A DNA stretch of 64,000 nucleotides from a virus. Positions 30,729 through 60,972 of the stretch are shown here, piece by piece (within the stretch, counting starts at the first letter, position 1; every line of letters starts with the position of its first letter). A program made the translations under genes and the position numbers. The DNA lies in the IMG/VR virus record IMGVR_UViG_3300032093_000013, one strand, 5' to 3'. The notes below the pieces were generated by a model, which saw only the letters and a list, made by a program, of their open reading frames with translations, had not been told where the DNA came from and searched no databases.

Positions 30729-31109
30729 TCACACAGCAAGAGCACCAGAAGGAATCTCTACACCTTCAAGGTAGGTTTCATGCCAGTCGCAAGTGTCATA
30801 GCACAACCAACCTTCTTCTTGAGTATAAACATAACCATACTCTTCACCGTTTTGAAGAAACTCACCCAGATTAGCATCAAGGCGAGGGGGGCAATCTTCA
30901 CCACGGGCACTATAATACTCGGGTTTCTTATCTTCTGCCCAGCACGTGCTCATATCACCACCGTCAATCAGGTCGGCAGCAAGTTCTTTGCTATTGTAGT
31001 GCGTCTTCAGGATGCGACCCAACCATTCGGGATACGAGTCCCAATGATGATAACTGCTCAAGATGCTTCCATCAGAAAGTTCGATTCCGATTCTTCCACG
31101 AGTTGCCAT
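30729..31109 (-). CDS. conserved phage protein (MATRGRIG...YHHWDSYPEWLG)
   Basis: Recognisable widespread phage family; own promoter element. Confidence 0.75.
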   Translation of the reverse strand: MATRGRIGIELSDGSILSSYHHWDSYPEWLGRILKTHYNSKELAADLIDGGDMSTCWAEDKKPEYYSARGEDCPPRLDANLGEFLQNGEEYGYVYTQEEGWLCYDTCDWHETYLEGVEIPSGALAV

Positions 31110-31192
31110 TGAGGTGTCTGTCGATTACCCACATATTATAAGGGGTCTCCCAGCGAACCAGGAGACCCCTTGTGCCAGTTTTCTAACTGTCC

Positions 31193-31405
31193 TCAGTCAT
31201 CATACACTCTACACTCTAATGCATCAGGATTGGCATCACAATAAAGTTCCAGTGGTGTAGGATCGTGAGAGTCTTCAGGATGGTGTTCTTTATATGTTTT
31301 AAGTGCTTCTAGTTCTTCTTCAGTATGTCTCCTTGATTGTGGAGAAATAGTTGGGTCACTCAAAAGGTCCTCGTCCTTTTGAATATGTTGATCGATGTTA
31401 TCCAT
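31193..31405 (-). CDS. cp12: CP12 Calvin-cycle inhibitor (cyanophage type; start revised to MDNIDQHIQKD)
   Basis: C-terminal LELYCDANPDALECRVYDD CP12 signature; no N-terminal Cys pair. Confidence 0.88.
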   Translation of the reverse strand: MDNIDQHIQKDEDLLSDPTISPQSRRHTEEELEALKTYKEHHPEDSHDPTPLELYCDANPDALECRVYDD

Positions 31406-31433
31406 AGTTTTGTAACGTGATGACATATTTATT

Positions 31434-34400
31434 TTATTTTGGTGAGTTATCCTCTTTACCTTCAAGAGAACGAACCATCAATTCAGTGAATTTTTCCATT
31501 TTTTCGGCAGAAACTGTCTGCGGAGCATATGTAATTGCATCTTTCAGTGCTATAAGTTCGCTCCATTCTTCTTTTGTAAGAATTTCAGGTCCAGTTTTTG
31601 CTAGAGTCATAGGTTTTTTGCGGTGTGTCCCAATATTAGCATTTCAATACATTACTATCTAGAAGTTTAATATTTTCTTCGGGATTGGGTTACATTACTT
31701 AATGAAGTCGTCAAGTGCATCAAGATCATCTTGCAAATCCTTCTCCCTCTTCTTATCGTGATAATAAGACCACAGAGCATTATGTACATCCATCAGGTGA
31801 TCAATCCAGAAACCAGCAGGATAAACACCTAGAGCATCTTGAAGACCACGATGGCTCGTTCCTTCACTTTCTGCCTTACACATAATGTAGCAGATTGCCT
31901 GAACCATATCAAGTTTGTCTGATTCAGAAAGCATAAAATACTTTCCTACTGCTCGTTGCTTTGCTTCTTCAGATTCTTTCTGAAGTTGCTTACAGGCATC
32001 AGAGTCCCACCATTCTTGCCAAGAGTTTTTCTTTTCAGTCATCTTTTCCAAAGATAGTTCCAAAGAAACCAGAGTCACCTGGTTTACGGTTTTCTAATTT
32101 ATCAAGAAGAGAATCAGTTGTTTGAAGTGTTTCAATACGATGAATAAGATCTGCAATCACACTACAAACCATTGGACGTTCTTGACGCGCAGCATATGAA
32201 AGAGCATTACGCAGAGATTGTTCCGCTTCCTTCAAAGATTCTTCTACTGATTGTGATAGTGCCATTACTTAATTTCTCCTTTCAATAAATTATGATAACG
32301 TAATACCTCTGGATTTTCAAGGTCTTTACATCGTGGATAGAAGATACCATCACGATAGCAGGCATCTTCTGGACTTGGTTGATAGTATTTCATTGCTTGT
32401 GGTTGCGAATCTCTAAAGTTGCAGAGTTCTCCCTGCATTTTCATAAAATTATCAAAACAAAGTCCAGCAACAAATGGAGCGATAAATTCAAGACCATACA
32501 TCATTTAAATCTAAACGTTTCAGTGTGTTTTTGCAAAAGATAAGAATCATCACCCTGATTCACCCACTCAACAATATCACCTTCTTTCAGATTTGCTGCT
32601 TCTAGAAGATCATCGGGAAATGTTACGCAGTAAATATCTTCATCAGTGTCTTCATCTCGGACTTCTTCAACTGGAAGAACCCACTTCTTTACCTTATCTT
32701 TTTTTACTTCTGGGGTCCAATCGTATCCACCCTCTTTACGAATGTCTTCAACTTCTTTTTGAAGATTGATATTATTTGTAGTATATTTTTGATATTCTTC
32801 TGGGTAATAATTCTCTTCCCAGAAATCATTCCAGGATTTTTGACACTCTGGAGATTTATCGTCTTTATCACATTGAAGAATTGAACTATCTTCTACGGGA
32901 CGATGACCACTCAGAAGTTCCAGAAGTCCAGAAGCACGACTAATACAGTCTTTATGGTAATAATACTCTTCACGAACTGCTTCACGAATCGCAGAATAGA
33001 TTTCGTGCGGTGAAGCATCACTATTCATCGCATCGTGAACCCACTCTTGAAGTTTTTCAAGCGAATACTTTTTGTAATCAGAGGTCATTGAGGTAGTCTT
33101 TGATTGCTTGTTCCATAATAACCTGAATCTCCTTGGAAGTCAACCCATTCAACCACTTCCAATTTGGGTCTTCCTTGTCCCATCCCATTGTATAAGACCC
33201 ATCTTCATTTTGTGTTATCTTAAGACTATCAGCATTCATCGCAGTCAGTATCCTTATGTTTCTTACGAATTTTTTTAAGTTGTTTCAGTTCTTCCTTAAT
33301 CATCTTATAAGCAGTTTCAGAGTCAATCTTATCACCCAACTCAAGGGCAACAATAATATCTACTCGGGTACCAAAATGTGCGAGTGCTTTTTCAAAACAG
33401 TCTAAATCATACATCGTAATTAATCCTACAGTGTTCGGCAAGAATATCTATACGGGCGTCAAGAGAATTCTCAAGACGATAAATTTCATTTGTTAGTTCT
33501 ACGTTTTCTTCCTCTAGTTTGCTGACTTTATCCTCAAGAGCAGCAAGTCTTTCATATACTTCATCCATAGGAACTTCTGGTTTAAGTCCCCACTTCTTAT
33601 GAAACCAATATGAATCACTCATAATACACCAACCTCTTTCAAATAGTTTCTATATCGCATAAAACGATTCCAGTTTGGTTGCCCCTGGACATTTAATTGA
33701 TAGCAGATTTCACAATAACACAACCACTCATACCAAGGTGTGGTAGGATCTAATACGTGATATGGATAATCAGAGTTTTCCACCTACTTCCGACTCATAA
33801 GTTTTGGATTCAGAGAAACCTTCCTGCCGTCCTTTAAGATAAAAACGGGTCGCTGAGATACACTGCTCTTCAGTGAGAGATGTGATAAGTCCGTTACCAT
33901 CTTTGTCAGTCGAATACCAGAGTCCATACTTTTTTTCATCAACATAAAAAGCATCATCAATTAGTTTCTTTTCCATTTGTTTTATTCTTCAAATTTGTAA
34001 CTCAATTTGATGTCTTTCTTTTTCAAACTATATCGATCGATATGCTTTTTACGATGGTCTTCAGATTGAAAATAGCACTTACGGGTTTCATTTCCGTCTT
34101 TATACACAAGTTTCCAGGGAAACTGATCAAAGGGAAATTCTTCGGAGTAGTCCATCAGGTAGGTTGTTCAACACGTTGAGTATACACGGAATCAAACAGT
34201 TCGTCAAGTACCTCACCACACTCATCGTAGGTTTTTGGATCAAATACACTCCACTCTTGATACCGACGAACGGCAGTGTAGATCAATCTATATTGTTCAG
34301 AGGTAAAGTTCATTAGTCGTAAAGATTTTGCTCCTGTTGTATTTTATCTAGGTAGTGGTAGATCGTTGCTTTTGAGTACTCAAACTCCTCAAATCGTTGT

Positions 34401-35569
34401 GGTTTTTTCTTCTCCATCTTGGTGAGCATATTCACCCAGTCATAATGACTATTCACCACCCATCCATAATGATGGTCGTCACATAATAACTTGAACATTA
34501 CTTGAACCCCTTACTTTTCTTTTTGTCTAATACTTCAACGTGACTCAAAAAGTGCCCACCATTTTGAAACCAGGTGAGTTGAACATCCTCATAGTTATCA
34601 AAGATGACCTCTTTACCATCTTCATAAACTAACTTATAATCGTGGCGATCATAAGGTTTATCAGATGTTTGTTTAAAGTATTCTGGTGATGAGGAGTCAA
34701 TAAGTTGAGTCATTTCAGATAATGAGGTTTTTCAGATTCAAATGTTACCCACTTTGCCATTTTAAGGCACATCAGCAAAGTTTGGTGTTCACGGTTATAC
34801 AGTTCCCAATCTTGTTTGAGTTTCGCAGCATACCTACGACGATAGGCACAGCACCAGACGTTATAGAATATCTTGTCTTTTTCAGTCATAATGGGAATAC
34901 CTCCACATCACTAATCGTGGCACTTTTACATTTATAATAAGTTGTGAGTTGCTGAGCAGTCATCTCACTATTTGCAAGAAACTGTATTTTTACAGTTGCA
35001 CCATCCACAAGAGATGATAAGATCACCGCATACTTATTCATCATTATCATCCCAAGGTGCTTTACGATTCATCAGTTCTTTAATTCTTTCCACCACAGCA
35101 GGGTCTTGTGGTTCATTGATTCGTCGCACAAGTTCATCATATGCTTCTGCGGATACAATAATCCTTTCTGGTTCTTGTCCCAATCTCAACCTGCGTTCTG
35201 GACTGATGGTTAGATTGTAAGGGTCATCATAAGGATAGATGTATTCCTGAAACCATCCAATACTCAAACTCTCCCAGAACTCACCATAACCCCATTCATC
35301 ACCGTCATCATAACAGTCAAGAATATACAGGACATTACGAAATCCATCAAGGAAAAGTTCCCATTTTGTTGGGTTTTCAAATCTCACGGCGTTTCATCAC
35401 TCCACCAATAAGATAGTTTATCACCATAAGCAGAAATATTCAAGTGGTAGATTTTGCCATCTTTGGTATAAACTCCCACCCATAGAGTGCGTTCATTCAT
35501 ACTTTCAAGGTGAAACATCTCCACATCTTTCAGCACGATTTCATCTGGGTTTTCAGTAAATCTACTCAT
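31434..35569 (-). CDS. run of small hypothetical ORFs (31434-31610, 31695-32042, 32035-32265, 32265-32504, 33078-33239, 33229-33414, 33407-33622, 33770-33976, 34313-34498, 34498-34713, 34710-34889, 35034-35387, 35384-35569)
   Basis: Translationally coupled, co-oriented ORFs from the track plus manual translation. Confidence 0.6.
32501..33088 (-). CDS. protein with C-terminal AbrB/MazE-like domain
   Basis: YCVTFPDDLLEAANLKEGDIVEWVNQGDDSYLLQK. Confidence 0.6.
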   Translation of the reverse strand: MTSDYKKYSLEKLQEWVHDAMNSDASPHEIYSAIREAVREEYYYHKDCISRASGLLELLSGHRPVEDSSILQCDKDDKSPECQKSWNDFWEENYYPEEYQKYTTNNINLQKEVEDIRKEGGYDWTPEVKKDKVKKWVLPVEEVRDEDTDEDIYCVTFPDDLLEAANLKEGDIVEWVNQGDDSYLLQKHTETFRFK

Positions 35570-36281
35570 TACTCTTCCTCACTCGTTCAAGAAATGTAAT
35601 TGATTGTTGATAAAGTGCCTCAATCAAGTTCTCAATATCACTAATCGCAATCTCATTATACTCACGATTGAGATATTCACAACGAATAGCATCAATCATA
35701 GATTGTAGAGTAATCATTTGTTGTTGCTCTGGAGTGATTGGTGTGCCGTGAGGAAGTCCAGAACATTCCAGATTGTAGTAATCATTATACCGTCGCAGGA
35801 CAGTATCACTTCGTTCTTTGCGTTCCCATTCTTCTTTTTCAATTTCAGCAAGTTTCAACATAGTATTGACGTTCTCTTCATAGAGATGTTTATCAAGAGC
35901 ATCAAGTGCCTTGCGTTCTGATTCACGACGCTCTGCCTCCTCAAACATTTCATCCGGGTATGGTTCTTGATTGTTCATAAGTTCTAGAACTTTCTGGTAA
36001 TCTTCTTCGGATACTTTTGCTTCAATTGGTTCAGTCATTTTGATTTCAAGTTTAATTTCAGGTGCTTTGGTTCCAGTAGTAAGAGTTTCAAGAGTTGGAG
36101 CAGGCATACGGGATGTTTCCTTACCGTTTGTATAGAAGATTAAGTCCTTGTTCATAAGTTCTCTCAACTTCTGTTTACCGTATTCCGTTAATTCTTTCTT
36201 TGATTTTCTCAATTCATCCAATTCACTTTGAGATAGATTTAAATGAGGCAAATCATCAGGAACTGGAAGATTATCAGTCAT
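35562..36281 (-). CDS. hypothetical protein, possibly a fusion of modules
   Basis: 239 aa; internal in-frame ATGACTGA at 36031-36038. Confidence 0.6.
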   Translation of the reverse strand: MTDNLPVPDDLPHLNLSQSELDELRKSKKELTEYGKQKLRELMNKDLIFYTNGKETSRMPAPTLETLTTGTKAPEIKLEIKMTEPIEAKVSEEDYQKVLELMNNQEPYPDEMFEEAERRESERKALDALDKHLYEENVNTMLKLAEIEKEEWERKERSDTVLRRYNDYYNLECSGLPHGTPITPEQQQMITLQSMIDAIRCEYLNREYNEIAISDIENLIEALYQQSITFLERVRKSNE

Positions 36282-36361
36282 AAGATTTTTGTTTCATAAA
36301 GTCATTATACAACAAAGGGCACCAGATTTCAAGTGCCCCTGTTCCAGTTTGCAAAGTGTCC

Positions 36362-37120
36362 TTATGATACTCTTACTCTTTTAGAAGTGTCTATATTTTT
36401 TGATTTTTGATATCTCGTAAGTCCTCCTGGATTAGAAATAAATCCAGTTTCAATACACATCCATTTTTGATTTCCTACATTTTTTCCACTAACTTTTCCA
36501 CCATTTCTAGCATTTTCAATTCTCTGTTGTTTAGTAAATCCGTGTATTCCTAATCCGAGTTCTTTTACTTTATTTCCACCTTTTCTACCATCTTCACGAA
36601 TTTGTTCTTTTGTTTTTCCGTGTATTCCTATACAAAGTTCCTGTTGTGTTTTAGCACCTTTTCTACCATCTTCACTCATTTTTTCTTTTGTTCTTGAATG
36701 AACTCCCACTCCAAGTTCATATGCCTTTTTACCATTTTCAATTCTTTTTTCCAAAGAAACATTGTAAAGTCCTGTATTATTATTTTTATGAGTTTCTGCT
36801 GCTTTTTTTCCTGCTGCTTTGAGTATTTTTAGTGATAAAATACCATTACAATTTTCATTCAAACACCAATTATCGTTAAGAAAAGGTCTAATTATTCTTT
36901 TTTCAACTTCTTGTGCTTCTAACCAACTTTCGTCAGTATAATCAAAAACTTCAAGTATTTGTTTCTTTGGAGTATAAAATTTCCAACACCATTTATGAGT
37001 TATAGGAGTTCCCCAATATTCTTCGTTGTAATATTTTTCCTTATGAACCCCATAATAATAATATGGAACTTCTTCAAAAGTAATTTTGTATAAGTATATT
37101 CTTGGACTTTGTGAAGTCAT
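36362..37120 (-). CDS. free-standing GIY-YIG (Seg-like) homing endonuclease with GRKGG repeats
   Basis: IYLYKIT..YYYYGVH, YWGTP, AQEVEKRII, CLNEN; repeated GIHG..KE....GRKGG. Confidence 0.7.
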   Translation of the reverse strand: MTSQSPRIYLYKITFEEVPYYYYGVHKEKYYNEEYWGTPITHKWCWKFYTPKKQILEVFDYTDESWLEAQEVEKRIIRPFLNDNWCLNENCNGILSLKILKAAGKKAAETHKNNNTGLYNVSLEKRIENGKKAYELGVGVHSRTKEKMSEDGRKGAKTQQELCIGIHGKTKEQIREDGRKGGNKVKELGLGIHGFTKQQRIENARNGGKVSGKNVGNQKWMCIETGFISNPGGLTRYQKSKNIDTSKRVRVS

Positions 37121-37130
37121 CGTAATCTTA

Positions 37131-37206
37131 TTGAAACCGCATTAGTATTTATAATAGAAAAGGTGCCCGAAAGCACCTAATCCGTCCGTAGAGATTGCGG
37201 TTTCAA
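37131..37206 (-). promoter_or_regulatory. late promoter, terminator and RBS-sequestering inverted repeat
   Basis: IR 37131-37141/37196-37206; TATAAATA 37146-37153; UUCG hairpin 37161-37178 followed by a U-rich tract. Confidence 0.75.
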
Positions 37207-37222
37207 CAGACATTTTTATTTA

Positions 37223-37999
37223 TTACCTTAATTTCTCCCGCATAAGTTTCAGACACTCGTTCCATTTATAAGAGTTAGTATCGTGTTCTTTCGGCAACCA
37301 TTCGGCAACAATACTACAAATATGCTCCCTATCAACATTAGAATAGGGGTCAAGATTAGCAAAAAGAGTAGTAGGTTTTGGTTTATAATAATCATCTTCT
37401 CTTACCTTCTCTTCATATGCTGCCTGAAAACCTGCTTGAAACCCCTTCCACCTCATATCATCATACTCGGAATCAGTTTCTAATTCAGGATATTGCCCCC
37501 CCCAATCTTTGTATGCTTCTTCTACTGGTGATTTGTGTTCATCAACCACATCATCATACTTTTCCTTCTTCACATCATTAAACCAAAGTCCTTCAAGAAG
37601 TCGTTCAGTTTCTTTATCAGTCACCATCACAAGTCTTGAAGCATTATCCCAGAAATCCTCTTCTTTTTCTCTTCTCCACCACACAACATACCCATACTCA
37701 TCAGTATATTCAATACGATAATAAGTTTTCTTATTATAAGAGACAATATGAACTTCACCAGATTTTTCTGCTTCCATTCTTGGTTGAGATTTATGTGTCT
37801 CAATCTCTTTGAGAAGTTCCAGTTTCTTTTGAAGCACTTTGATTTCTGCTTCTGTCTTTTCAATATCAGATTTGTAAGTCATTTGTTTAAGATAAGGAGT
37901 AGCATCCATCACACCATCTTTGATTGCTTGTCTAAAGGCATCACGCAATCCATCGGCAACTTGCTCTGGTGTTTGTGGTTTTGGTTGATATTCAGTCAT
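37223..37999 (-). CDS. hypothetical protein (start revised to MTEYQP)
   Basis: Begins at the ATGACTGA linker overlapping the upstream stop. Confidence 0.65.
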   Translation of the reverse strand: MTEYQPKPQTPEQVADGLRDAFRQAIKDGVMDATPYLKQMTYKSDIEKTEAEIKVLQKKLELLKEIETHKSQPRMEAEKSGEVHIVSYNKKTYYRIEYTDEYGYVVWWRREKEEDFWDNASRLVMVTDKETERLLEGLWFNDVKKEKYDDVVDEHKSPVEEAYKDWGGQYPELETDSEYDDMRWKGFQAGFQAAYEEKVREDDYYKPKPTTLFANLDPYSNVDREHICSIVAEWLPKEHDTNSYKWNECLKLMREKLR

Positions 38000-40900
38000 T
38001 TTCAGTTCCTTCAACATACTTTTGTGCGTTGAGTGTTCTCCACATTACAATCTGTTCAAAGCATTCTCCAAGATTGCGACAAACGAAACTGTCTTCATCC
38101 ACCCCATCTGGACCATCCCAGATTGTAGCAGTGCATCCCTTTGTGGGATGTGAAGTAATAGTGATTTCAATCTTCATTATTCGTCAGTCCTACTTCAAGT
38201 CCTTCCATTCTTCCCATATTATAACCCATTTCGTGGATTTTTAGGGCAAACTCAACCATTTGTTTTTTGGTTGAAGAAAAATACTCTATTCCCTCATAAT
38301 CATCAACCAATACTTCAAGATGCTTTTCAGCGAGGTTAAGGATTTGTTCGTCAGTCATCAGGTGTCTGTGTGTATGAAAGTATTATACGACAAAGGGCAC
38401 CCGTTTTCAAGTGCCCCTGTGCCAGTTCTTCAAGTGTCCTTCTCTACCTCTTTTTCCAGTTGCTTATAAAGAGCATATTCGTATCCACACAAAAATGCAC
38501 TTTCCACCCAACTGATAAGAATTTGTTTCCTTTGGTTCTCATCCTCAATTTTTATGTCGTCCATAAAGTATTCATACCGATATGTAAATCGTCCATAAAA
38601 ATCTTCATAAAACCACTTGTTAAATGAAAGTTGAGCATCTTCTTGGGGGTCAAGATATTCATTAGCAGGATGTTTCATAGGTCTAATGGTTGTTGGGGGT
38701 CTCTTTTCCAAGTTTCCTTATAAGTAATCCACCGTTCCACACCAATTTCTTGTTGAGCAACCCAGTGTATTCCATTCTCATCAATCGCATCAAGATGATG
38801 AACACCAGTCTTGGGGCAGATGACTCTGGATACTTGTGTGAATTTTAGTTTGTTAGTCATTCTTCCAAACTCTTAATACATTTTTGAATCAGGTCATTCC
38901 ACCTCTTTGGAGTAAGTTTTTCATTAGCAGTTGAGGACCTGAATGGATACTTATACCAATAAAGTCTAAAGTTTTCACTTGGGATTTCAAAGTTAGGTTT
39001 ATCCATTTCATCTTCTTCATCACCCCAATAATAAGGACGGATGATAAAGAAATCGTTGGAGAAATGTGGAGTGTATCCATAATCTTTTTCTCCTGTCTTT
39101 TCTGTGATCGCATCAATCAGGATTTGGAATGGACCACCCATCCATTTCTCACGAGGAACACTATATTCCTCTGTGGGATTTCCAAATAACATTTGCCCAA
39201 GTTCAAGTTCAGTCATTTTCTTTCATACAAGGGTATTCAAAAGTTTCACCGATTTGTTCTAATAGAGTGCGGGCAAGGTGAATTTCACCGTAATCAATAC
39301 CCTCCGCAAAGGCATCATCATAACTACCAGCACTTGGAGTATAATCATCTCCATATACATCATAGCAGTGTTTTACCTCTGCGTATTCTTTGAGAACCTT
39401 GAGGAGAAGTGTGAGTTTTTGTTCGTTAGTCATAAGTTTTCACAATAGAACATTGTTCATAACCCTTATTGTATCCATCTTCATGAATTGCAAGGGCAAA
39501 CTTCAAGAGTTGTTCTTCCCAACACTCCCAGAAGTTTTCTTTCTCACCAGTGAAATCATCAAATCCACAGGTTTTAGCAAGTTCAAGTATTTGTTCGTTA
39601 GTCATAATTCATACTCATAATACGGTTGATTGCTGTTTTGTTTGCTTCTGGATTAGGAACATCTTTCAGTGAAGTAAGAACTTCCTCAATAGTTTCTTTA
39701 CGAATTGCAAGGGCAAACTTCAAAAGGTTTTCTGGTTTGTTTTCATCAATAGGATGAATTGCGAGAAAATGAGAAGCAAGTTTTAGAAGTTCTTCGTCTT
39801 TCATCGGTTGGTTGCTTATGAGAGTATTATAAGGCATTTTCAGGGACTTTGGGGAGTCCTTGTGCCAGTTCAAAAATTGTCCCACACCTCAAAGGTAATT
39901 CTTCTTGTGCGACTTGAATGGTCTATATTCATATTCATAGAATATACTTGTGCCTCTTTGTTTTTTAACTTTTCTGCAATTTGTAAGAAACCATCATTCA
40001 AACTCTCATTATCATAACAGGTGAGTTTTGTGATTGGAATAGTAGAAGTATCCCGAAGTTCTTCCAGTTCTTCTGCGTATGACTTTTCACCCTTATAATA
40101 ATCTGGTTTTGGTTCTTCTTTCTTTCCGTAGAGTTCTTCATATTTTTGTAGGAGAGGATTAGTCATAATAAGTGTTTGCGTGTCCGTAGTTCAAATAATA
40201 CCAGAACAATTCTCTCATTCTTTCTTCATCTTCAAATCCGTGAATATGGTTCCACATATGATTACTCCAAGAATACACACAATACTCAAAGAGATGAATT
40301 GAAGTATAGATGTTCCATTTCTTCCAAGTGTCTTTCTTGTTAGTCATTTCTTACACCGATGTAATGGAATACGAAGAAACTGAAAGAACCTTCCAATATA
40401 TCCTATCATATCTCCGCATTTAGGACAACGATAAGATGGGTGGGTCATTCTTTATCACCAAAATGTTCAAGTAAAGCACGAGCAAGTCCTCTTACGATTT
40501 CTTCATCATACCACCAATCCATACCATCACTCAAATAACCTTCAATAAATCCATCAAGTTCTTCATCTGTTGGTTTAGTCATTTCAATCCAATCAGTTTA
40601 GCAAAATCAGGAGTGATAGTAAGGTTTTGTTCTCTTACAAGATTACGAACTTCTTTACGGAGATGAAGATACTTATCTCGGTATTCTGTGAGATACTTTT
40701 GTGCTCGGTTCTTTTCATCAAAGTCCTTTTGGTGCTCGTAAGTTCTGGTTTCGTAGTATCTCATTTCTCATCCACCTTTGGTGTTTTACCTTTACACCAA
40801 ATAGTATGAAGTTCATCAACACGATTTTCCCAAATCATAGTATCTACAATATAGTCATATGGGGTTTCATAAGTGTCTTCATACACTTCTCTAATGAAGA

Positions 40901-43900
40901 TAGATTTATTTACTGATTGGGGGTATTTCATTTCTCATCCACCCATCTAATAGAAAGACATTTATCCATAAACCAACGAGTAATAGCATTTGGTTTATAA
41001 GGCATATAGAACCTCAAATAACCATTTCCAATCGTATAATAACCTTCGTGTTTATTTCCTTGTTTAATTACAAAACTGGAAGTAATATTACTACCATCAC
41101 CAAAAACAGAAATTTTAGAGTAATCTAATGTATATTTGAGTGGGAAAAATCCATTCTCACGGGCATACTCAAAGTCCTCATCCTGTTTCTTACAGAACTC
41201 CTCATACCTTTTTTTCTTATACAACCAATTGTGCCCTATCCTATATTCAAGATGAGTTTTCTCAATCAGTTTCTCAATCTTCTCATCAAGTTCTTGTTGG
41301 ATTTCTTCTAATGACTTGCGTGGTTCAGGAATATCAAGATAAGGTTTGATTACATCAAAATACTCAAACTCTTCGGTGTAATAAAAAGCACCACAAATAA
41401 AAGGAAGAATACTTTGAGGTGCTCCCACAAGTTTCTTTGGATTGAGTTTGTATCCTATTTTTTCAGTCATTTTGCCCTCATAGCAGTAATCACAGCATCA
41501 CGGGCACTTTTACCTTTTGCTTTATTCATAGGAAATCCACTACTCATAAATTTCCAATCACTTTCACCATTCATTTGGAGATTGTGTGGATGAAATTGAT
41601 TGAGTAGAAATTCAAGGATTTCTGTGTCTGTTGGTTCAGTCATTTTCTTCATCGGGTAGTTTTTCATTCAAATCAATACCATCTAAAACTTTATCAGACC
41701 ATTTTAGCACATTCTCAATCAGTTTATCATTAACTTCTTTTTTCTTTTCCACAAACTTTTCAATCAGTTCATCATCAGGGTCGTTGAGGATTTGTTTTAC
41801 TGGGTCTTTTTCTTCAATCATCAGTTTGAGTTGTTTGAGATTATCATAAAGTTCTTTTTGAAAATCATAACATTCAGTCAAATGTTCTATGTTATTGTCT
41901 TCAAAGTTAGTTTCCTCACGGATTTCCCAAGACAAACCATCCATATCTGCTGCGGTTTCTGTGAGAAAGTATTCAAGTGTTTCAAGTAAATTCATTTTCT
42001 AATCACAGCAATTACTTTACGATTTGGATACTTCTCTACAATTATATCACGAGCATCCTCATAGTCAATCGCATCCTTTACGGTTTCATAATACACAGTT
42101 TTATCTGCGTCATCCCAAGTTTGAACTTCGTAAGTCATTTCTTCTCCCAATTTGCTCTCACATCTTTATAAGGTTCTGCTTTCACTCCACCATAAGTATC
42201 AAAATGAGGTTTTGGGTCATTAGGTTGAGCAGTATGAACCAACTTTGTAATATTAGGAGAAATACCAGGATTACAAGGAATGGTTTGTTGAGGAGTGAGA
42301 GAAGTATAAGGAGGAATATAAGTGAGTGGAGATTTACTCAAATACTCTTCTACAATATTACAAGACCATCCATCCTCATAGAACTGCTTACCATAGAAAA
42401 TAGCATCTTCCTTATTTGGAAAGGAAGCAACATAAGTGTCGTTGTGATAGAGTGAATAAACTTTCATTTCAGTTCCTCAATAAGTTTCATAAGAGTTTTG
42501 ACGGATACTACTTGAGATTTCTTATCAACTCGTCCAGTTCCTCTAACTTCACTATGCTCATCAATCAAATATTGAAGAACAGCAGAAGCAATTGTTTGTG
42601 GGGAAGATTGTTCCATTGAAGACCAATCCCAACTCACTTCATTCAGTGTTTCAAGTAAAGTCATAATACCTCATTATCAAAGTTGTTTAGATAGTTCCAA
42701 AACCACAACATATCATCATCACTCACATATTCCTCATACCTTTTACCATATTCACTATAATAAATGTGAGGATACATTACTCTAAACCACCAATCAAAAC
42801 ACCATCTCCACATCAATCTTCGCAACCAAAACTGTTTGAGATTATATGAAAGTTTCATTTCAATTTACTCATACAAATAGAACAGAGACAATCATCAGTT
42901 TTAGGAACTCTAAACATTATGTGATTTCCAGAGCAACAATCTCTATCACCACAATTTCTACATTCATCACAAATCCATTCTTTTTGATTACGACATTTGA
43001 CGAAATCTTCAAGAGTATAGTTTTGAAGAAGATTAGTCATTTCAGGTGTCTGTGTGTATAAGAGTATTATAGGGCATCCAGAGGCACCCAGAGCATCCCC
43101 TGTGCCAGTTCTTCAAGTGTCCTCAATAATTGTCGAAGCAACCATCATCATAAGCCTTATCATAGATTTCTTGGGCAAACTTCACAAAGGCATCAAAGTT
43201 TCCAGAATACTCCCAACCATCATTCTCATCCCAATCTTCTTCAAAATGTTCTTTTACAAGTTGTAGGATTTGTTCGTCAGTCATTTTTCAATCACAAATA
43301 CAGATTGTTGAATAAGTTGTTTTGGAAAATAGACACTACCCTTGTCAGTTTCAAAGGTAAAGTAGGTCACATCCCCAATTTTTGATAGAAGATTACAAGC
43401 ATCAAGATAATCTTGCTCATCACCTTCTTTATCAACACTCTCAAAATCAACACTCTCAAAAGTTCCTTGAGGTGTGTGTGCGATGATTTTCATCAGTCTT
43501 TTTTGAAGAGTTTGTAGATTGCGTCTGCTACTGCGAGTGCTTCTTCTTTTTCCATACAAATATGATTTACTCGTTTTTCACTTGTATTCACACCAGAAGG
43601 AAGTTCCCAATAAGAAATGGTACAACCTTCAAATCCTACATCAAGGTGAGTGTCTTCTACGGTGTACCAAAAATCAGTGTGTTCCTGAATACGAACTTGA
43701 TTAGTGATTTCAATTGTCATAAGAGGTGTCTGTGTGTATGAGAGTATTATAAGGCATCCAGAGGCATCCAGAGCATCCCCTGTGCCAGTTCTTCAAGTGT
43801 CCTACATACCCAAGAGTTTTTTGTCGGCATCACTCAAAGAAGCAAGGTCTTTCTTCAGTTGTTGAAGTTTTCGTTCCTTTGCTTTTTCTTTCTCTGCCTT

Positions 43901-46173
43901 TTCTTTCTCCAGTTGTTTCATTCTCTTATTGTATTCTTTGTCGGTTTCTTCACGATGCTTGTAAAGATAATAGGCACCATCCTCATATGGTTCGCATTCA
44001 TATTCAAGTCCCACCCAACCAGCATCTAACTCTGCTTGAAGTGCGGCAATAATACTTTCAAGTGTTCCGTCAAAATCTCCCCAGTATTGTTGAGTTTCTT
44101 TGACTTGAATGCGTTCAGTCATTTCAGTTCTCCATAAGAAAGTTGTTGAATTTCTTCTCTATTCAAAGTTTTAACATAACCACGAGGATAGTCATTATCA
44201 TAAGCATTAAAGACAAAAACAGGAATGTTTCGTTCTTTACAGATTTGTTTGAACTTGTCTTCATTCAGTTCAAACTTACCAACATACTCAACATATGGAT
44301 ACATATCCCAAGATGCTACAAGTCCTCCTGGATAATAACCCCACTCAAACTCATCAAGTTCTTGAATGATTTGTTCTACATCTTGAATGTTTTCTGGATT
44401 AGTGTAGATGCGTCCGTATCCTTTGTAATTGAAGGCAGTCATTTCAGTTGTCCTCTATCAAACGAATGTTGTTTTCAATCTCACCTCTCATATCATAAAA
44501 ATACGATTTTCCCCTATCAAGAATAAAAGTATCATAATCTTCTTGGGTTGGTTCATCTTCCATTTCCATATCCTTCCAAACTTCCAAGAAATCTTCAACA
44601 GACATATGGTATTCCAGAGGAATGTATGCGACTTTGGGAATGATGTGGTTAGTCATTTCAGTCCAATCAGTTTAGAAAATTCAGGAGTAATGGTGAGGTT
44701 TTGTTCTCTTACAAGATTACGAACTTCTTTACGAAGATTTATCCACTTTTTGTAGTAATCTTGTGATGCTTTTTCTGCTCTGTTTTTAGCATCAAAGTCG
44801 CACTGGTGTTCGTAGGTTCTACTTTCGTAGTATCTCATTTAATCGTCACAGTTTGATTTTTGATTTGGCAAAGACGGGAAAGATTATCACCCGCAGTAGC
44901 AACTTGGAAGAAGTTGTAGTTAGTCCCACACTGTTCGTTGAGTGCTTGTTGAGTTGTAATGACTTTCATAACTCCTGTGATGGGAGCAGCAAGAAGAACC
45001 AAAACAACAGTACCAACAATCAAAACAGTCCAAGCATCCATAAAATCAAAGTTGTTGCGTTTCATTTCAGTTCTGGTGTTGTTTGAGGTGAAGTTGGATA
45101 CATTCCATAACATTATCAAGAGTTAGAGCACTACCCTCATAGTAGTAATCCATATTCATTACATCTGTGACTTTGAGTTTGTAATAAAAATCTCCATCAG
45201 AAGAATACTGATGAATGATGATGTCAGTTTCGTAGTTCATCGGTTTGTTTCTTATGAAGTCATTATAAGGCAAAAGGAGCACCTGTGGGATGCTCCTGTG
45301 CCAGTTCTTCAAGTGTCCTATTTCAGTTCATCTTCCTCTTTTTGAATAGCAGAGATAGCATTTAGAAACTCCAAACCATATTTACCTACAACCCAAGCAT
45401 CTTTATCCTCAAAGAACCTAGTACCGATGGTTCTCATATCATAGCCTTCTGTGCTTTTATTGAAGAAAGCAACGACATAGCAACTATCACCAGAGTCGTG
45501 AGTATACCACTTGACGAGTTCATACTTGTTGTTGACTTTACTCCAACGAAACTCTATGTTACGAAATCTCATTCTTCTTCCTCTTCATAAGGGAACATTT
45601 CATCATACTCTTCATCAGTGAGAGTCAGATACTGAACATCAGCATCTTTGTGCTCTTCGGCATACACTAACTGATAGTGAGCAAAACTACTTTCAGAAGT
45701 GCTAGCGTACTCTATGAGTCCATCAACAATACAAAGGTAATTCATTAGAGCACCTCCCAGTGTGCATCAGATTTGTCACCGAAACGATTAGTTCCAGTTC
45801 TTGTACTAACCCAAAAAAAGTATTTACGGTTTTCTGATGCCAAGAATAACTCACCACCAGTGTCCTGCTCTACAATACAGACAGGATTGTTTCCCATGAT
45901 ATTTGCTAATCTATTCTTCGCCTTGCTGCTTTTGGGTCTTACGGTTACTCTTCTCATTTTGGATCTCCAGTTTCAGTTTGCGAATACCAGTAATAAAGTA
46001 AGCAAAATCACGGGATTCAGTCACCCGTTTTTCTTCACCACAGACACCACATTTACCATTCCAGACAGATGAACAACCGACTGAATAAACACCATAAGTT
46101 TGACCACAATCCATACAAGTGGTGCCTGCCTGCTCAAGTCGTTTGAGTAGTGCCTTCTTCTCTTTGAGAGTCA
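37992..46173 (-). CDS. array of about 35 micro-genes (34-180 aa), mostly starting MT[DENK] and translationally coupled
   Basis: Track ORFs plus manually found 39426-39605, 40344-40448, 40445-40582, 41992-42138, 43123-43284, 45569-45745. Confidence 0.7.
43043..43803. repeat. near-identical direct repeat pair of about 80 bp (43044-43122 and 43724-43802)
   Basis: aggtgtctgtgtgtatRagagtattataRggcatccagaggcaYccagagcatcccctgtgccagttcttcaagtgtcc. Confidence 0.9.
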
Positions 46174-46206
46174 TAGGGGCGTTTCGTATAATGGTATTAT
46201 AGGGCA

Positions 46207-48435
46207 TCAGGAGGCGTCTTCAACGTCCTCTGTGCCAGTTTCCAAAGTGTCCTCATCGCCAGTAAGGTCTTTAAGTCTATTCATAAAGTCTTCATCAAGT
46301 GGATAGACCTTTTCTTCACCACGATCAATCCTATCACACATCTCCATCAGATATTCTAGAAACTCTTTGGGATATGTTTCATCCATATTAATGCTGCACC
46401 AGAACCACTGATAACATTCTTCATATGGATCGTCGTTTTTCAGCAGAGCATAATCAGCATAGTTTCCACTGATGAGATCTCTCCACATCTTAAAGTTGTT
46501 CCAGATCTCTCTCCAACCAGTCTGGAAACAATGTCCGAAGTAATACTCAAACCAGTTCAGTTTTTTCTTCATCAACACTCATCCATTCCAAGATAATCAG
46601 TCTCTTTTTCATCCACTTCCTCTAAATGGTCCCATCTCCAAGTGCGGGAAAGCAAATCAATATCAAACCCAAACTTATATGCCCAGAAGAGAATACCTAA
46701 AAGACCATTACTTCCCATTGTAATCTGAAGATAAGGTGAAGAAGGATAATCATTCCAACTTACAGAAAACTGAAACAAACTCCATCGTTTAATATTAACA
46801 ACTTGAACATAAACTTCGTGTCCAAAGTCATAGCGATGCTTAAATTTAATTAGATTCATTGCTCTTTAATAACACAAGATGTAGTGCATTTAAGGTCACC
46901 AGAAGATCCAGAGACCGTAGATGTATGGTGTGGTGTTTTTTCTGGTGTCAGATTATATGATACAATAGCGGACACAAAAAACGCAAGTGCAGGGATTGCG
47001 ACATATTGTAGATAAGTTTTACTGCTCATTATTGTTTTCCTCAAAGTCAAACCATTCATACAGAGAGTTCATCGCACCATCAACCACACAATCAACCACA
47101 GCATCTTCGTGTGGGTTCTCTACGTGTTTATGGGCACGATTGTATCCATAACGGACACCTTCTTCCAGTGCCATCTCCAATACCTTACGAAAGTTAGGTT
47201 TCATATCAATAAGGAAGAGATTTCAGACCATCCAGAACTTCCTGAAAGCGTTCGGCACGACTCTTGTGGTGCTCTACATTCTCCTCAAGCACACTCACAA
47301 TATCGTCCAGGACAACATCCAGAGACGCATCAGTATCAAAGTATTGTTGGATTGCTTCGGCAAGATACCGCCGCCGACTCCATTCCATACTATAGGGTTT
47401 GTAGTCCATAATCAGAGTGTATATGCGGGTATTATAAAGGTTTTTTCAGATATTGTCAATCTCTTGTTCGCCAATCGGTTTCGTCATCATCACGTTTAAA
47501 CCAATCATGCAGTTCATCTGGGTTGTCAAAACCTCTTCTACCAAATCTTTCGTGCCCTAAACCACCAATATCCATTGAGTTTAGGAAATCATCCATTTCA
47601 TCCATATTGGGATTTTCCGCTTTACGTCTTGCCTGGCGGAGCATTGTTCCAGCAGAGCGATTTGCCTTTGCAAGTTTCTCTGCCCAGATCATATCTTCTA
47701 AACTTACTTCTTTATGAAGTACAATCTTCTCACAGATTGCTTCCAGTCTCAATCTGTACTGCGTAGAGAGCATATGTATTACCAGATGTAGTGTTATTTA
47801 TTTTTATATTCGTCCATTAACTCTTTTGCGAGTTTCATAGAACGACGCCACATTAAATATTTTACCACAGGATTACGTGGATTGTTTAACAACCACCACT
47901 TTTGTTTCTCATAGTTAGACTTTGCTAACTTAAGCACATAATAAAAGGCAGCAGCGATACTATCATCTGTTGCGATAAAGTATGCCGCTACTGCAAATAC
48001 GATAAACCAAGCATAATAAGACATCATCTAGGTCTCATAGTTTTATTATTTAACCAAGAAATTGATCTAGACTGGAGACCGATGCGCCTTTTGCGGACTT
48101 TTGAATGTAGGTTTTGGCGGACTTGTAATTGTTTGCTAGATGAACCTGCTGTCCGTTGTGAATGATAATAAACTTTTTACCAAATGGCACTGCTGCCCAC
48201 ATACCATCTTTAGTGACATAACCTTGTGGATCTGATGGTTTTGGATTTAAGATTCCTGGACGATCTACAAAAGGTTTCTGAAAGTTTTCGCTCATCCGAA
48301 TACAGCGGTCACACCAATAACTTTAGCACTTGGATTACGTGCTAGAGCAGTCCGCCTGGCATCATCATAATCACGTGCCTCGACAATCTCATCAAAGACT
48401 TTGCCAGCGACATAGAGTTGGACTTTGCAGCGCAT
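46207..48435 (-). CDS. run of small conserved hypothetical ORFs (46207-46578, 46572-46859, 46856-47032, 47019-47204, 47206-47409, 47456-47773, 47794-48027, 48050-48295, 48292-48435)
   Basis: Co-oriented packed ORFs; perfect TTGACA-17-TATAAT promoter at 47431-47459. Confidence 0.65.
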
Positions 48436-48474: not shown

Positions 48475-49704
48475 TCAGCGCCTGACAATGCTGACGGCAA
48501 CCTCACCTTGCTTGAAGATGATGTCCACCACATTCTGGACTGCCTTCGCAGTGCCCGTAGATGCCTTGTCAAAGACCGGGCAGACCACCAGACCATAGGA
48601 TTTAGTGTAGGACGACAGGTCGCCTGCCTGAATGGCGCCAGAGCGGATTCCAGCGGCGTCTTGGGGGTGCAGACGCAGCGTCCGACCAACGGTCTGACCG
48701 ATGCCCACAACGTCCATAGAGCGCAAGAACACGACCGCTTCCAGAGCAGAAATGTTGATGCCTTCTGCCAGAATGCTGTGATGCAGGACCACAAACTTTT
48801 TGTCAGGGTCTTTGCCCCAAGCATTCAGAGTGTCAAAAAACACCTCACGATTGACCTTCTGCCCATCAATAAATGCACCGTGCTTGGCAGTAATGTGCAG
48901 CACAGAGTAACCTTGCTCGGCAATCTGGTCTGCAAAGTCAGATTCAGACAGCAGAGCAATGATGTGGCGAGTTGCCTTTGCACACACCAGAATCTTATCG
49001 ACAGGATTGTCCTGAATGATTTGCATCAGATACTCACAGTCCCGTTGAGCAATATCCTCACCCTTGACGGACAGACGCATTGGAGCAGTAATCACTTTGG
49101 GAGGAATGATATAGCCACCCTGTACCAATTCAGGAGCAGGAACTTTGGCGATGATATTACCGTAGACAGCAACATCATTCATACCAGGTTTGGCAACGGT
49201 GGCAGAATACTTGGGAGTTGCAGTAAAGAAGTAGCAACGCTTTGCTTCAGCAGCAAAATGCTCTACAGCAGGAAAGAAGTGACGTTGAACGCTATTGTGT
49301 GCCTCATCAAAGTAAATCGTATCCACCTCAATATCTGCCTTTGCAAGTTGCTGCAGAGAATTGTAAGTGGTGAAAATCAGTTTGTGACCTTGAGTTTGCT
49401 CATACCAAGTGCGAATCGCATTGGGACGAGTGCTGCTGAAGTGATGAGTCTCACCACTGTGAATGTGCATCACAGAAGCATTAGTGATAAACTCAAGGTA
49501 TTCAGCAGACAACTGCTCTGCCAGGAGGATGCGCGGCGCCGTCACTACAATAGTCTTGGGGGTGCTAGACTGAAACACACGAATAGCATCAAAAATGCCC
49601 ACGTTGGTCTTACCACCACCGGTAGGAAACACACAGATACCTTTGAGATGCTGTGCCAGAGCATCCAGAGCAACTTGTTGGTGAGGGCGAAGTTGGTACA
49701 TCAT
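48475..49704 (-). CDS. superfamily 2 DExH helicase (ResIII-like)
   Basis: LRPHQ, PTGGGKT, DEAH, TATP, LAEGINI, QTVGRTLR. Confidence 0.9.
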   Translation of the reverse strand: MMYQLRPHQQVALDALAQHLKGICVFPTGGGKTNVGIFDAIRVFQSSTPKTIVVTAPRILLAEQLSAEYLEFITNASVMHIHSGETHHFSSTRPNAIRTWYEQTQGHKLIFTTYNSLQQLAKADIEVDTIYFDEAHNSVQRHFFPAVEHFAAEAKRCYFFTATPKYSATVAKPGMNDVAVYGNIIAKVPAPELVQGGYIIPPKVITAPMRLSVKGEDIAQRDCEYLMQIIQDNPVDKILVCAKATRHIIALLSESDFADQIAEQGYSVLHITAKHGAFIDGQKVNREVFFDTLNAWGKDPDKKFVVLHHSILAEGINISALEAVVFLRSMDVVGIGQTVGRTLRLHPQDAAGIRSGAIQAGDLSSYTKSYGLVVCPVFDKASTGTAKAVQNVVDIIFKQGEVAVSIVRR

Positions 49705-60619: not shown

Positions 60620-60667
60620 AACTTAAACGGAAAACTCATTATTATTTATATTGCTATGTCTTTTAAG

Positions 60668-60742
60668 TAGCGGTGGCGAGATTCGAACTCGCACTGTATT
60701 GATTTTAAGTCAACTGCCTGCTGCCGATTGGGCTACACCGCC
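60668..60742 (-). tRNA. tRNA-Leu(UAA), short variable loop, no encoded CCA
   Basis: GGCGGTG/CACCGCT acceptor; GTTGA-CTTAAAA-TCAAT; GCGAG-TTCGAAT-CTCGC; promoter TTGACC-17-TATAAT at 60752-60780. Confidence 0.85.
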
Positions 60743-60781
60743 AATAAGACCATTATAACTCAAAGAGTTGTAGTGGTCAAG

Positions 60782-60855
60782 TGCTCGTTGAGAGAATCGA
60801 ACTCTTCCTACGGCGCTTTATGAGAACGCTGCCTTCACCAGATGGCTAAACGAGC
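60782..60855 (-). tRNA. tRNA with CAU anticodon (Ile2 or elongator Met)
   Basis: GCTCGTT/AACGAGC acceptor; GCGTT-CTCATAA-AGCGC; TTCGATT T-loop. Confidence 0.85.
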
Positions 60856-60884
60856 ATTCGCTATTCGCAAATAAAGAATAGCAA

Positions 60885-60972
60885 TACGAGTGCCTGGATT
60901 CGAACCAGGTCAAAGCCGCTAATCTGGCGGAAAGAGTTTATAAGACTCCTCTGACTACCAAGTCTCACTCGC
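60885..60972 (-). tRNA. non-canonical tRNA-like gene with UAU (Ile) anticodon
   Basis: GCGAGTG/CACTCGT acceptor; GGAGT-CTTATAA-ACTCT; CCTGG-TTCGAAT-CCAGG; long variable arm; minimal D-arm. Confidence 0.7.

Follow-up and report, generated by a model that had tools for sequence, protein, structure and literature searches.

Why should gene after gene in one phage array begin with the same eight nucleotides? The question is raised by a 64-kb stretch of the IMG/VR virus record IMGVR_UViG_3300032093_000013, analysed here at its full length (the window; it corresponds to bases 16383-80382 of a virus contig of 94.8 kb, read as reverse complement), in which the octamer ATGACTRA recurs at the starts of tightly packed small genes. 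A preliminary description of this DNA had proposed that any open reading frame (ORF) joined at the octamer ends beside the next start, and that the repeat acts as a recombination core through which single genes are moved. In our best reading, to which we assign a probability of about 0.6, the octamer serves translational coupling as a stop-start adaptor that is independent of frame and is carried along with each gene cassette. Rather than a genetic element of a new kind, it is a sharpened form of the known ATGA overlap.

The octamer is a gene-start signature of the accessory array

Exact matches to ATGACTRA numbered 21 in the window, every time on the minus strand, which carries nearly all genes; shuffled sequences (both strands together) contained 8.5 on average and 16 at most, and none of 100 shuffles reached 21. 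Gene starts account for 18 of the 21 copies. All 18 start coordinates listed in the preliminary description were found again, as were its 16 copies within 8.4 kb (36274-44656), where about 0.6 would be expected by chance on one strand, and its four near matches (ATGACCCA, ATGACTTA, ATGACTTT and ATGACTGC) are gene starts too. At 15 of the 18 motif starts the octamer holds the first ATG, GTG or TTG of its own ORF. At 32042, 37999 and 41643 it is the earliest ATG that spares the gene a long overlap with its upstream neighbour, and the N-termini at 32042 and 41643 resemble that of another array gene (41643 is like 40582). Three exact copies (36031, 31193 and 59492) go beyond the earlier list.

The array comprises 65 genes, which overlap by 4 nucleotides (nt) at 23 junctions, by 8 nt at nine, by 1 nt at eight and by 11 nt at three. 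ATGACT begins 24 of the 65 array genes and 2 of the 63 genes outside the array in the contig (Fisher 1e-6); for ATGACTRA the counts were 18/65 and 0/63 (Fisher 2e-6), so that the equal use at core-gene starts which would have refuted the earlier claim is not observed. Structural genes begin with ATGGCA, ATGTCA or ATGCCT, behind TAA stops. The octamer is hence a non-random gene-start signature limited to the accessory array.

The source phage is closely related to Synechococcus phage S-SRM01, a T4-like cyanophage from fresh water (Kyanoviridae, genus Serangoonvirus); the gp6-like baseplate protein of the window is 91% identical to its S-SRM01 counterpart, and a Kyano_Gp96 domain was also found. 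The deposited annotation of S-SRM01 has the same array layout, with 17 of 69 deposited coding sequences in its array beginning with ATGACTRA, and its whole genome holds 41 forward copies and no reverse copy. In complete relatives, copies are likewise concentrated in small-gene arrays. We sampled the clade through 80 related IMG/VR loci (1.17 Mb), whose 1783 gene starts were clustered into 528 protein families. Here gene-strand copies of the motif numbered 833 and opposite-strand copies 23, in 598 non-identical contexts. Within these contexts A made up 51% at -1 and 56% at -3, and the earlier remark that AA often precedes the motif holds in this weak form only. A sequence logo revealed no conservation outside 8-9 nt except a weak purine patch at -12 to -7 and A or C at +9, and an extended conserved junction was therefore rejected.

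The motif is a family trait, inherited with the gene. It is the majority start in 77 of the 528 protein families and marks 15% of the accessory protein families in this phage group, and most remaining families never carry it. Paralogy was discarded as the source of the repeats: blastp joined only the MT(D/N)EQIL genes (three or four) and a few other pairs, explaining only about 4 of the 18 window copies, and it is also ruled out by the 77 unrelated families bearing the motif.

Both out-of-frame stops end upstream genes, and their use changes with the neighbour

The octamer contains a start codon and one stop in each of the two other frames. As had been claimed, both stops are used by upstream genes in the window: eight motif starts lie at A-TGA junctions (4-nt overlap) and seven at AT-GAC-TRA junctions (8-nt overlap), and the remaining three (43040, 38358 and 36281) have no upstream ORF and are preceded by a promoter-bearing gap (Table 1). 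The -4 NTGA overlap is found at 8 of the 18 motif starts, 23 of the 65 array junctions and 594 of the 1783 clade starts. The -8 NTGNNTGA overlap is found at 7 of 18 motif starts, 9 of 65 junctions and 163 clade starts. Over the clade the motif share rises from 8% at uncoupled starts to 12% at -1, 28% at -4 and 55% at -8 junctions.

Of the 25 families in which four or more members bear the motif, 17 form a -4 junction in some genomes and a -8 junction in others. Likewise, 17 families had called upstream neighbours at both junction types, using TGA with some and TRA with others, which bears out the claim that an ORF joined here ends beside the next start. As many as 123 of the 127 pairs of gene family and upstream family keep one junction type; the frame in use thus shifts with a change of neighbour and not by frameshift within the same neighbour. 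These switches provide direct evidence for a role of the octamer as two-frame adaptor. Fusion in frame at the linker, also proposed earlier, is reflected in 52 in-frame copies inside ORFs where 24 were expected, about a twofold excess.

Selection keeps the second stop at the nucleotide level

Position 2 is Thr in 33% of starts, and ACT is indeed preferred over the other Thr codons there (79-81%, compared with 51% in gene bodies). To follow the second stop where it is idle, we used strict -4 junctions, at which the upstream gene ends at ATGA and TRA is no ORF's stop. At Thr starts of this class, RA followed ACT in 148 of 201 cases and ACA, ACC or ACG in 9 of 47 (p=7e-12); when each family was counted once, the RA contrast was 63/106 against 22/98 (p=1e-7). 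At -4 junctions, the share of second codons followed by RA was 64-70% when they ended in T, about 33% when they ended in C and 12-17% when they ended in A or G, and ATT, AGT and AAT at codon 2 acted like ACT. Because RA depends on the last base of codon 2, and other T-ending codons behave alike, the selected unit is T-R-A at that frame and position. In line with this, the excess of +2-frame stops was confined to nt 6-8 (39%, compared with 13.5% in gene bodies and roughly 10% in later codons). Selection is on the T-R-A trinucleotide, not on the residue and not on general A-richness, and the data support the maintenance of the unused stop by nucleotide-level selection. TAG was considered as second stop and is essentially unused (1/204). 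An in-frame stop just upstream, which would insulate the third frame, showed no position-specific enrichment.

Selection for a fourth-site A and an out-of-frame stop is also evident. ATGA makes up 57% of starts without an upstream ORF, which exceeds the overlap requirement, and for Ser at position 2 (-8 junctions excluded) AGT and AGC together outnumber TCN by 74 to 44. Synonymous choice was furthermore biased at +9, where GAC exceeded GAT by 47:5 although GAT is 3.8 times commoner in gene bodies, GAA exceeded GAG by 107:1, AAC was favoured over AAT, opposite to body usage, and G was almost absent; this suggests an extra effect of start context. A special Shine-Dalgarno sequence was rejected, as its strength is equal at motif and non-motif starts; roughly half of coupled starts have a moderate one within the upstream gene. 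Motif starts fold slightly less than other starts.

Carriers outside the clade share cassettes

T4, P-SSM2, S-CAM7 and S-SKS1 show little or no motif excess. With the same gene caller, 1.5% of T4 and 1.3% of P-SSM2 starts bear the motif, with no hidden-stop excess; in S-SRM01 it begins 5.8% of genes, with 10.5% of small genes and no large gene. We then scanned IMG/VR for three motifs spaced one small gene apart, using ATGACARA as control pattern. The scan returned 103 stretches, and in 59 of the 89 analysed two or more of the three copies were gene starts, compared with 13 of 79 for the control. The raw triple-hit count was discarded as evidence since the control gave a similar number (79 vs 103); only the gene-start share differs.

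Of the 12 complete carrier genomes only 2 carry a capsid gene of T4 type, and other carriers include contigs of 57-61% GC with whole gene chains joined by 8-nt overlaps. Genomes G017 (14:1) and G029 (0:17) show the same motif strand bias and clustering; G017 resembles S-CBS2, S-CRES and PSS2, and G029 resembles Synechococcus phage S-EIVl. Locus L184 is similar to Cylindrospermopsis and Nodularia phages, G013 bears a weak resemblance to a Pseudanabaena phage, G007 appears to be a proteobacterial phage, and protein searches against cultured phages gave no match for G009 and G046. As a cyanophage marker for these carriers psbA was uninformative (3/47). Eleven of 85 motif-start proteins from other backbones have homologues in the arrays of the myovirus clade (34-73% identity), and part of the spread therefore reflects a common cassette pool rather than convergence. 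One small-protein family, several members of which start MTDHPIT, occurs in five otherwise unrelated backbones (G009, G017, G018, G029 and L184; 31-75% identity), and every copy sampled by the motif-based search has an octamer start (e.g. L184:4003, G017:91511).

In the GC-rich phage contigs L171:2256-3190, L184:3736-5290 and L107:861-1745 (57-59% GC) five to seven small genes are chained by ATGACTGA, through 8-nt overlaps almost entirely in L171 and L107 and mostly in L184, so that every upstream protein has an x-Asp C-terminus; at such a GC content ACT is rarely used as a codon. At L159:6455-8300 (61% GC), ten tandem paralogous mini-genes each stand behind the same 20-nt stretch plus ATGACTAA; this array is built by tandem duplication, not by assortment.

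A proposed stop-start adaptor and the evidence that weighs against it

The octamer unites a start codon with the earliest +1-frame TGA (nt 2-4) and the earliest +2-frame TGA or TAA (nt 6-8). An upstream ORF in either non-zero frame therefore ends 4 or 8 nt into the next gene, which in the proposed mechanism would leave the terminating ribosome atop the next AUG, in a termination-reinitiation arrangement. The octamer belongs to the downstream gene and is inherited with each small early gene. Such genes are constantly re-assorted among phages, each cassette meeting new neighbours in differing frames, and, as cassettes are retested behind neighbours in various frames, both stops would stay under selection, even the unused one. 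As to the choice of ACT, A at +4 and C at +5 agree with a general bacterial preference, Thr supplies an A-starting codon while still permitting removal of the initiator Met, and T at +6 is required by the second stop.

Several points weigh against this mechanism. The small-gene arrays of T4 and P-SSM2 are just as dense but do without the octamer, which is therefore not required for such arrays. At starts without an upstream ORF, RA is still tied to a T-ending codon 2, more weakly (39% vs 22%), and several promoter-proximal genes bear the motif, so that history or a separate initiation effect contributes. We infer actual translational coupling from junction geometry, and repeated transfer as the selective agent from evolutionary reasoning. 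According to reporter studies summarised in PMC12548453, coupling declines with overlaps longer than -4, and the 8-nt overlap may thus couple less well. Our gene caller, moreover, overlooks about 30% of small genes; strict ORF-based classes agree with the results obtained with it.

Alternative explanations

A tentative extension of the adaptor, which we hold to be rather doubtful, makes the octamer a 'standard interface' of circulating accessory cassettes: junctions of 8-16 nt would favour gene-precise insertions and deletions (indels), and translation and mobility would be co-selected with no dedicated recombinase. If so, an octamer cassette would be expressed behind any gene in two of three frames, and the cassette pool would span T4-like myoviruses, S-CBS2-like, S-EIVl-like and unclassified cyanophages.

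That the octamer is itself a recombination core, as first proposed, with the repeated 8-mer serving as microhomology for single-gene insertion, deletion and reordering and having become common through driving mobility, we consider unlikely. Relatives and the window differ by gene-sized mosaic blocks, and the extreme single-gene mosaicism of the arrays speaks for such a core. So does the position of the breakpoints: a start codon is no more than a few nt away from 14 of 20 insertion sites and from 28 of 40 deletion ends. Whole-gene deletions in some cases span one ATGACT to the next, repeats flanking the extra genes of relatives measure 10-16 nt at the motif and 3-7 nt at plain ATGA, and cassettes with a motif start are common to unrelated phage backbones. 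Deletion between short direct repeats is also known in T4. However, homology-block ends per start were equal for ATGACTRA and plain ATGA (4.6 vs 4.5), and indel ends (19 per 18 motif starts, 19 per 28 plain ATGA) showed a small, non-significant excess. Breakpoints thus do fall on start codons, but plain ATGA junctions receive them to much the same extent. Gene-precise events are probably the only ones to survive selection, and breakpoints at junctions are therefore expected under any mechanism. Upstream neighbours were no more diverse in motif families than in motif-free ones (0.75 vs 0.72, p=0.63), nor were downstream neighbours. A search for a tyrosine recombinase (PF00589), which matched 14 of 14 control genomes, found none in the contig, S-SRM01, G001, G017 or G029, and an integrase or other site-specific recombinase is absent there. 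Microhomology, finally, leaves the frame and position requirement of T-R-A unexplained. The recombination core thus stays unsupported and of low probability.

It is distinctly unlikely that AUG-ACU-(G/A)A(A/C) is simply the best start (A/C-rich, unstructured, encoding Met-Thr so that Met can be removed) and the hidden stops incidental, in which case a stand-alone mRNA should yield more protein from ATGACTGAA than from ATGACAGAA or ATGACTTCA. PMC5850271, citing Tang 2010, describes a general preference of bacteria for A at +4, for C at +5 and for Thr as second residue, and the motif at promoter-proximal starts, the third-codon bias against G and T at +9 and the slightly weaker folding of motif starts all agree with this. 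Against it, codon-3 RA depends on the synonymous choice at codon 2, also after ATT, AGT and AAT; the motif share climbs from uncoupled to overlapping junctions; Shine-Dalgarno strength is the same with and without the motif; and core genes of the same phage, read by the same ribosomes, never use it.

Frame error-proofing appears highly improbable. Here the published ATGA 'catch' model (PMC5850271) is extended to both frames, with two stops catching wrong-frame ribosomes after a frameshift or spurious upstream initiation and resetting translation at every gene. Both stops stand at the first possible position and nowhere else, and a reset at every gene would benefit long coupled chains with weak Shine-Dalgarno sequences. 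Ribosomes seldom shift frame or mis-initiate, however, so that selection per site would be weak, and the T4 and P-SSM2 arrays without the motif are left unexplained, as is its nature as a family trait. The idea overlaps largely with the stop-start adaptor, from which sequence data cannot separate it.

T4 RegA binds around the AUG of early mRNAs. That the octamer, as AUGACUGA RNA, is an operator for a phage RNA-binding regulator such as the RegA translational repressor is hardly credible: the motif does sit on start codons of early-type genes only, and S-SRM01 and one complete relative encode RegA, but G017 and G029 have motif arrays without RegA, T4 and P-SSM2 have RegA without motif excess, and neither the T-R-A dependence nor the use of two stops requires a binding protein.

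Other features of the window

The promoter repeats in the array consist, in order, of a conserved 5' box GGACACTTGAAGAACTGGCACAGG, a GC-rich hairpin, TATAAT and a CA-rich leader ACACAGACACC that abuts the start codon; they are 85-97% identical in relatives, and the element looks like the PeSL (promoter/stem-loop) cassettes of T4-type phages. At 36031 the motif is followed by MTEPIEAK, similar to the N-termini at 41643 and 40582, and a homology block shared with the relative L038 stops there; the 239-aa (amino acid) gene is possibly two cassettes fused in frame. At 31193 the ATG of the motif opens a 5-codon remnant, followed by a promoter repeat, and the copy looks like a leftover junction. The 61-aa gene starting at 38860 is absent from L038, with both breakpoints within start-codon junctions.

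A segment is duplicated at 40575-40766 and 44649-44840 (81-84% nt identity) and spans a 61-aa gene (MRYYE(S/T)RTYEHQ, 75% aa identity) plus the beginning of the motif-bearing gene behind it. A 78-nt (26-codon) unit, repeated three times in tandem with 64-71% identity, occupies 36495-36728 within a 252-aa gene (36362-37120) that matches no Pfam family. Genes for a tRNA trio (Leu-TAA, Met-CAT, Ile-TAT) cluster at 60667-60972, and no host-derived gene was found in the 64-kb window.

Table 1. Octamer copies and associated features (at motif starts, 4-nt overlaps end the upstream gene at A-TGA and 8-nt overlaps at AT-GAC-TRA).
Feature	Position	Strand	Gene or context	Upstream junction
ATGACTAA	44649..44656	-	start, 70-aa gene	4-nt overlap with 61-aa gene
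ATGACTGA	44115..44122	-	start, 106-aa gene	4-nt overlap
ATGACTGA	43277..43284	-	start, 53-aa gene, MT(D/N)EQIL family	4-nt overlap
ATGACTAA	43033..43040	-	start, 61-aa gene, first after promoter repeat (TATAAT..ACACAGACACCTGAA)	no upstream ORF to end
ATGACTGA	41636..41643	-	start, 58-aa gene	119-aa gene ends at AT-GAC-TGA, 8-nt overlap
ATGACTGA	41463..41470	-	start, 180-aa gene	4-nt overlap
ATGACTAA	40575..40582	-	start, 45-aa gene	4-nt overlap; preceding gene paralogous to the one before 44656
ATGACTAA	40340..40347	-	start, 62-aa gene	4-nt overlap
ATGACTAA	40159..40166	-	start, 98-aa gene	upstream gene ends at TAA, 8-nt overlap
ATGACTAA	39598..39605	-	start, 59-aa gene, MTNEQIL family	8-nt overlap
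ATGACTAA	39426..39433	-	start, 74-aa gene	8-nt overlap
ATGACTGA	39209..39216	-	start, 119-aa gene	8-nt overlap
ATGACTAA	38853..38860	-	start, 61-aa gene	4-nt overlap
ATGACTGA	38351..38358	-	start, 63-aa gene, MTDEQIL family, first after promoter repeat	no upstream ORF
ATGACTGA	37992..37999	-	start, 258-aa gene	8-nt overlap
ATGACTGA	36274..36281	-	start, 239-aa gene, first after promoter repeat	no upstream ORF
ATGACTGA	34882..34889	-	start, 59-aa gene	4-nt overlap
ATGACTGA	32035..32042	-	start, 115-aa gene	8-nt overlap with 76-aa gene
ATGACTGA	36031..36038	-	in frame, codon 82 of 239-aa gene 35562-36281 (repeat family D11)	
ATGACTGA	31193..31200	-	final TGA is the stop of 77-aa gene 31193-31426 (repeat family D3)	
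ATGACTRA copy	59492	-	in frame inside 180-aa ORF, outside the array	
Small-gene array	30729..48435	-	65 tightly tiled genes of 32-264 aa, downstream of the helicase gene	
DEAD/ResIII helicase gene	48475-49704		Pfam match	
Promoter repeat, 1 of 8 copies	43042..43122	-	roughly 80-90 nt, immediately upstream of gene start	
Promoter repeats, all 8	31161-31192, 36304-36374, 38382-38452, 39793-39888, 43033-43128, 43713-43808, 45229-45318, 46163-46258			

Discussion

Much of the geometry described here has precedents. Enrichment of stop-start motifs with -4 (NTGA) and -8 (NTGNNTGA) spacing is known (Brown and Wade 2025, PMC12548453), and coupling by termination-reinitiation requires a nearby stop and start (PMC12548453; Huber et al. 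2019, PMC6728339). The geometry of our junctions is the same; here, in contrast, both spacings are merged in one octamer owned by the downstream gene, and the idle stop is maintained by synonymous-site selection. The proposal that A at the fourth site serves as an out-of-frame stop is found in Abrahams and Hurst 2017 (PMC5850271), which also covers the A+4/C+5 preference and what Thr contributes to Met excision, and the first out-of-frame stop of a downstream gene partly sets overlap length (PMC3887535). With this 'error proofing' the octamer shares an excess of A at +4 beyond overlaps and a similar synonymous-codon argument. That work, however, concerns the +1 frame only and a weak genome-wide bias, whereas the octamer adds a second, +2-frame stop at nt 6-8 and is found in accessory arrays only, not in core genes. 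The earlier statement that no such system has been described thus fails for the -4 and -8 spacings and for the fourth-site A, which are published, and stands for the combined octamer, on which we found no paper. The S-SRM01 paper contains no mention of the octamer, of cassette inheritance, of selection on an unused stop or of restriction to the array. Both spacings in one octamer, its fixed association with the cassette, the selected unused stop and the confinement to accessory arrays appear to be undescribed in the literature searched.

Two systems of modular gene exchange invite comparison. The octamer resides in the same type of region as PeSLs, namely hyperplastic early-gene arrays, and eight promoter-plus-hairpin repeats occur here too. 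PeSLs are intergenic elements of roughly 50-100 nt, thought to serve as recombination homology, and Arbiol, Comeau, Krisch and colleagues reportedly described in 2010 how these promoter/stem-loop cassettes mediate modular shuffling in T4-type phages. The octamer, by contrast, is 8 nt long and coding, has no stem-loop and carries a recombination signal no greater than that of any gene boundary; it was rejected as a PeSL-type cassette, the promoter and hairpin repeats being a separate feature. With integron cassettes (attC plus IntI) the arrays have in common small, promoterless, re-assortable genes with a common junction. An integron-like array was likewise rejected, since neither the contig nor S-SRM01 nor other carriers searched contain a PF00589 tyrosine recombinase, the junction has no attC-like hairpin and no conserved flank past 8-9 nt, and it is a translational signal.

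Most uncharacterised genes of large phages reside in accessory 'hyperplastic' regions, which raises the question of how such tiny genes stay expressed despite shuffling. A start codon with both out-of-frame stops, synonymous-site selection and use in two frames offer a testable rule for arrays that tolerate re-assortment. In practice the octamer provides a strong start-site cue for gene callers, given that the longest-ORF rule mis-sets three starts in the window and many 8-nt overlaps; it also flags in-frame fusions and suggests a compact junction for synthetic polycistrons.

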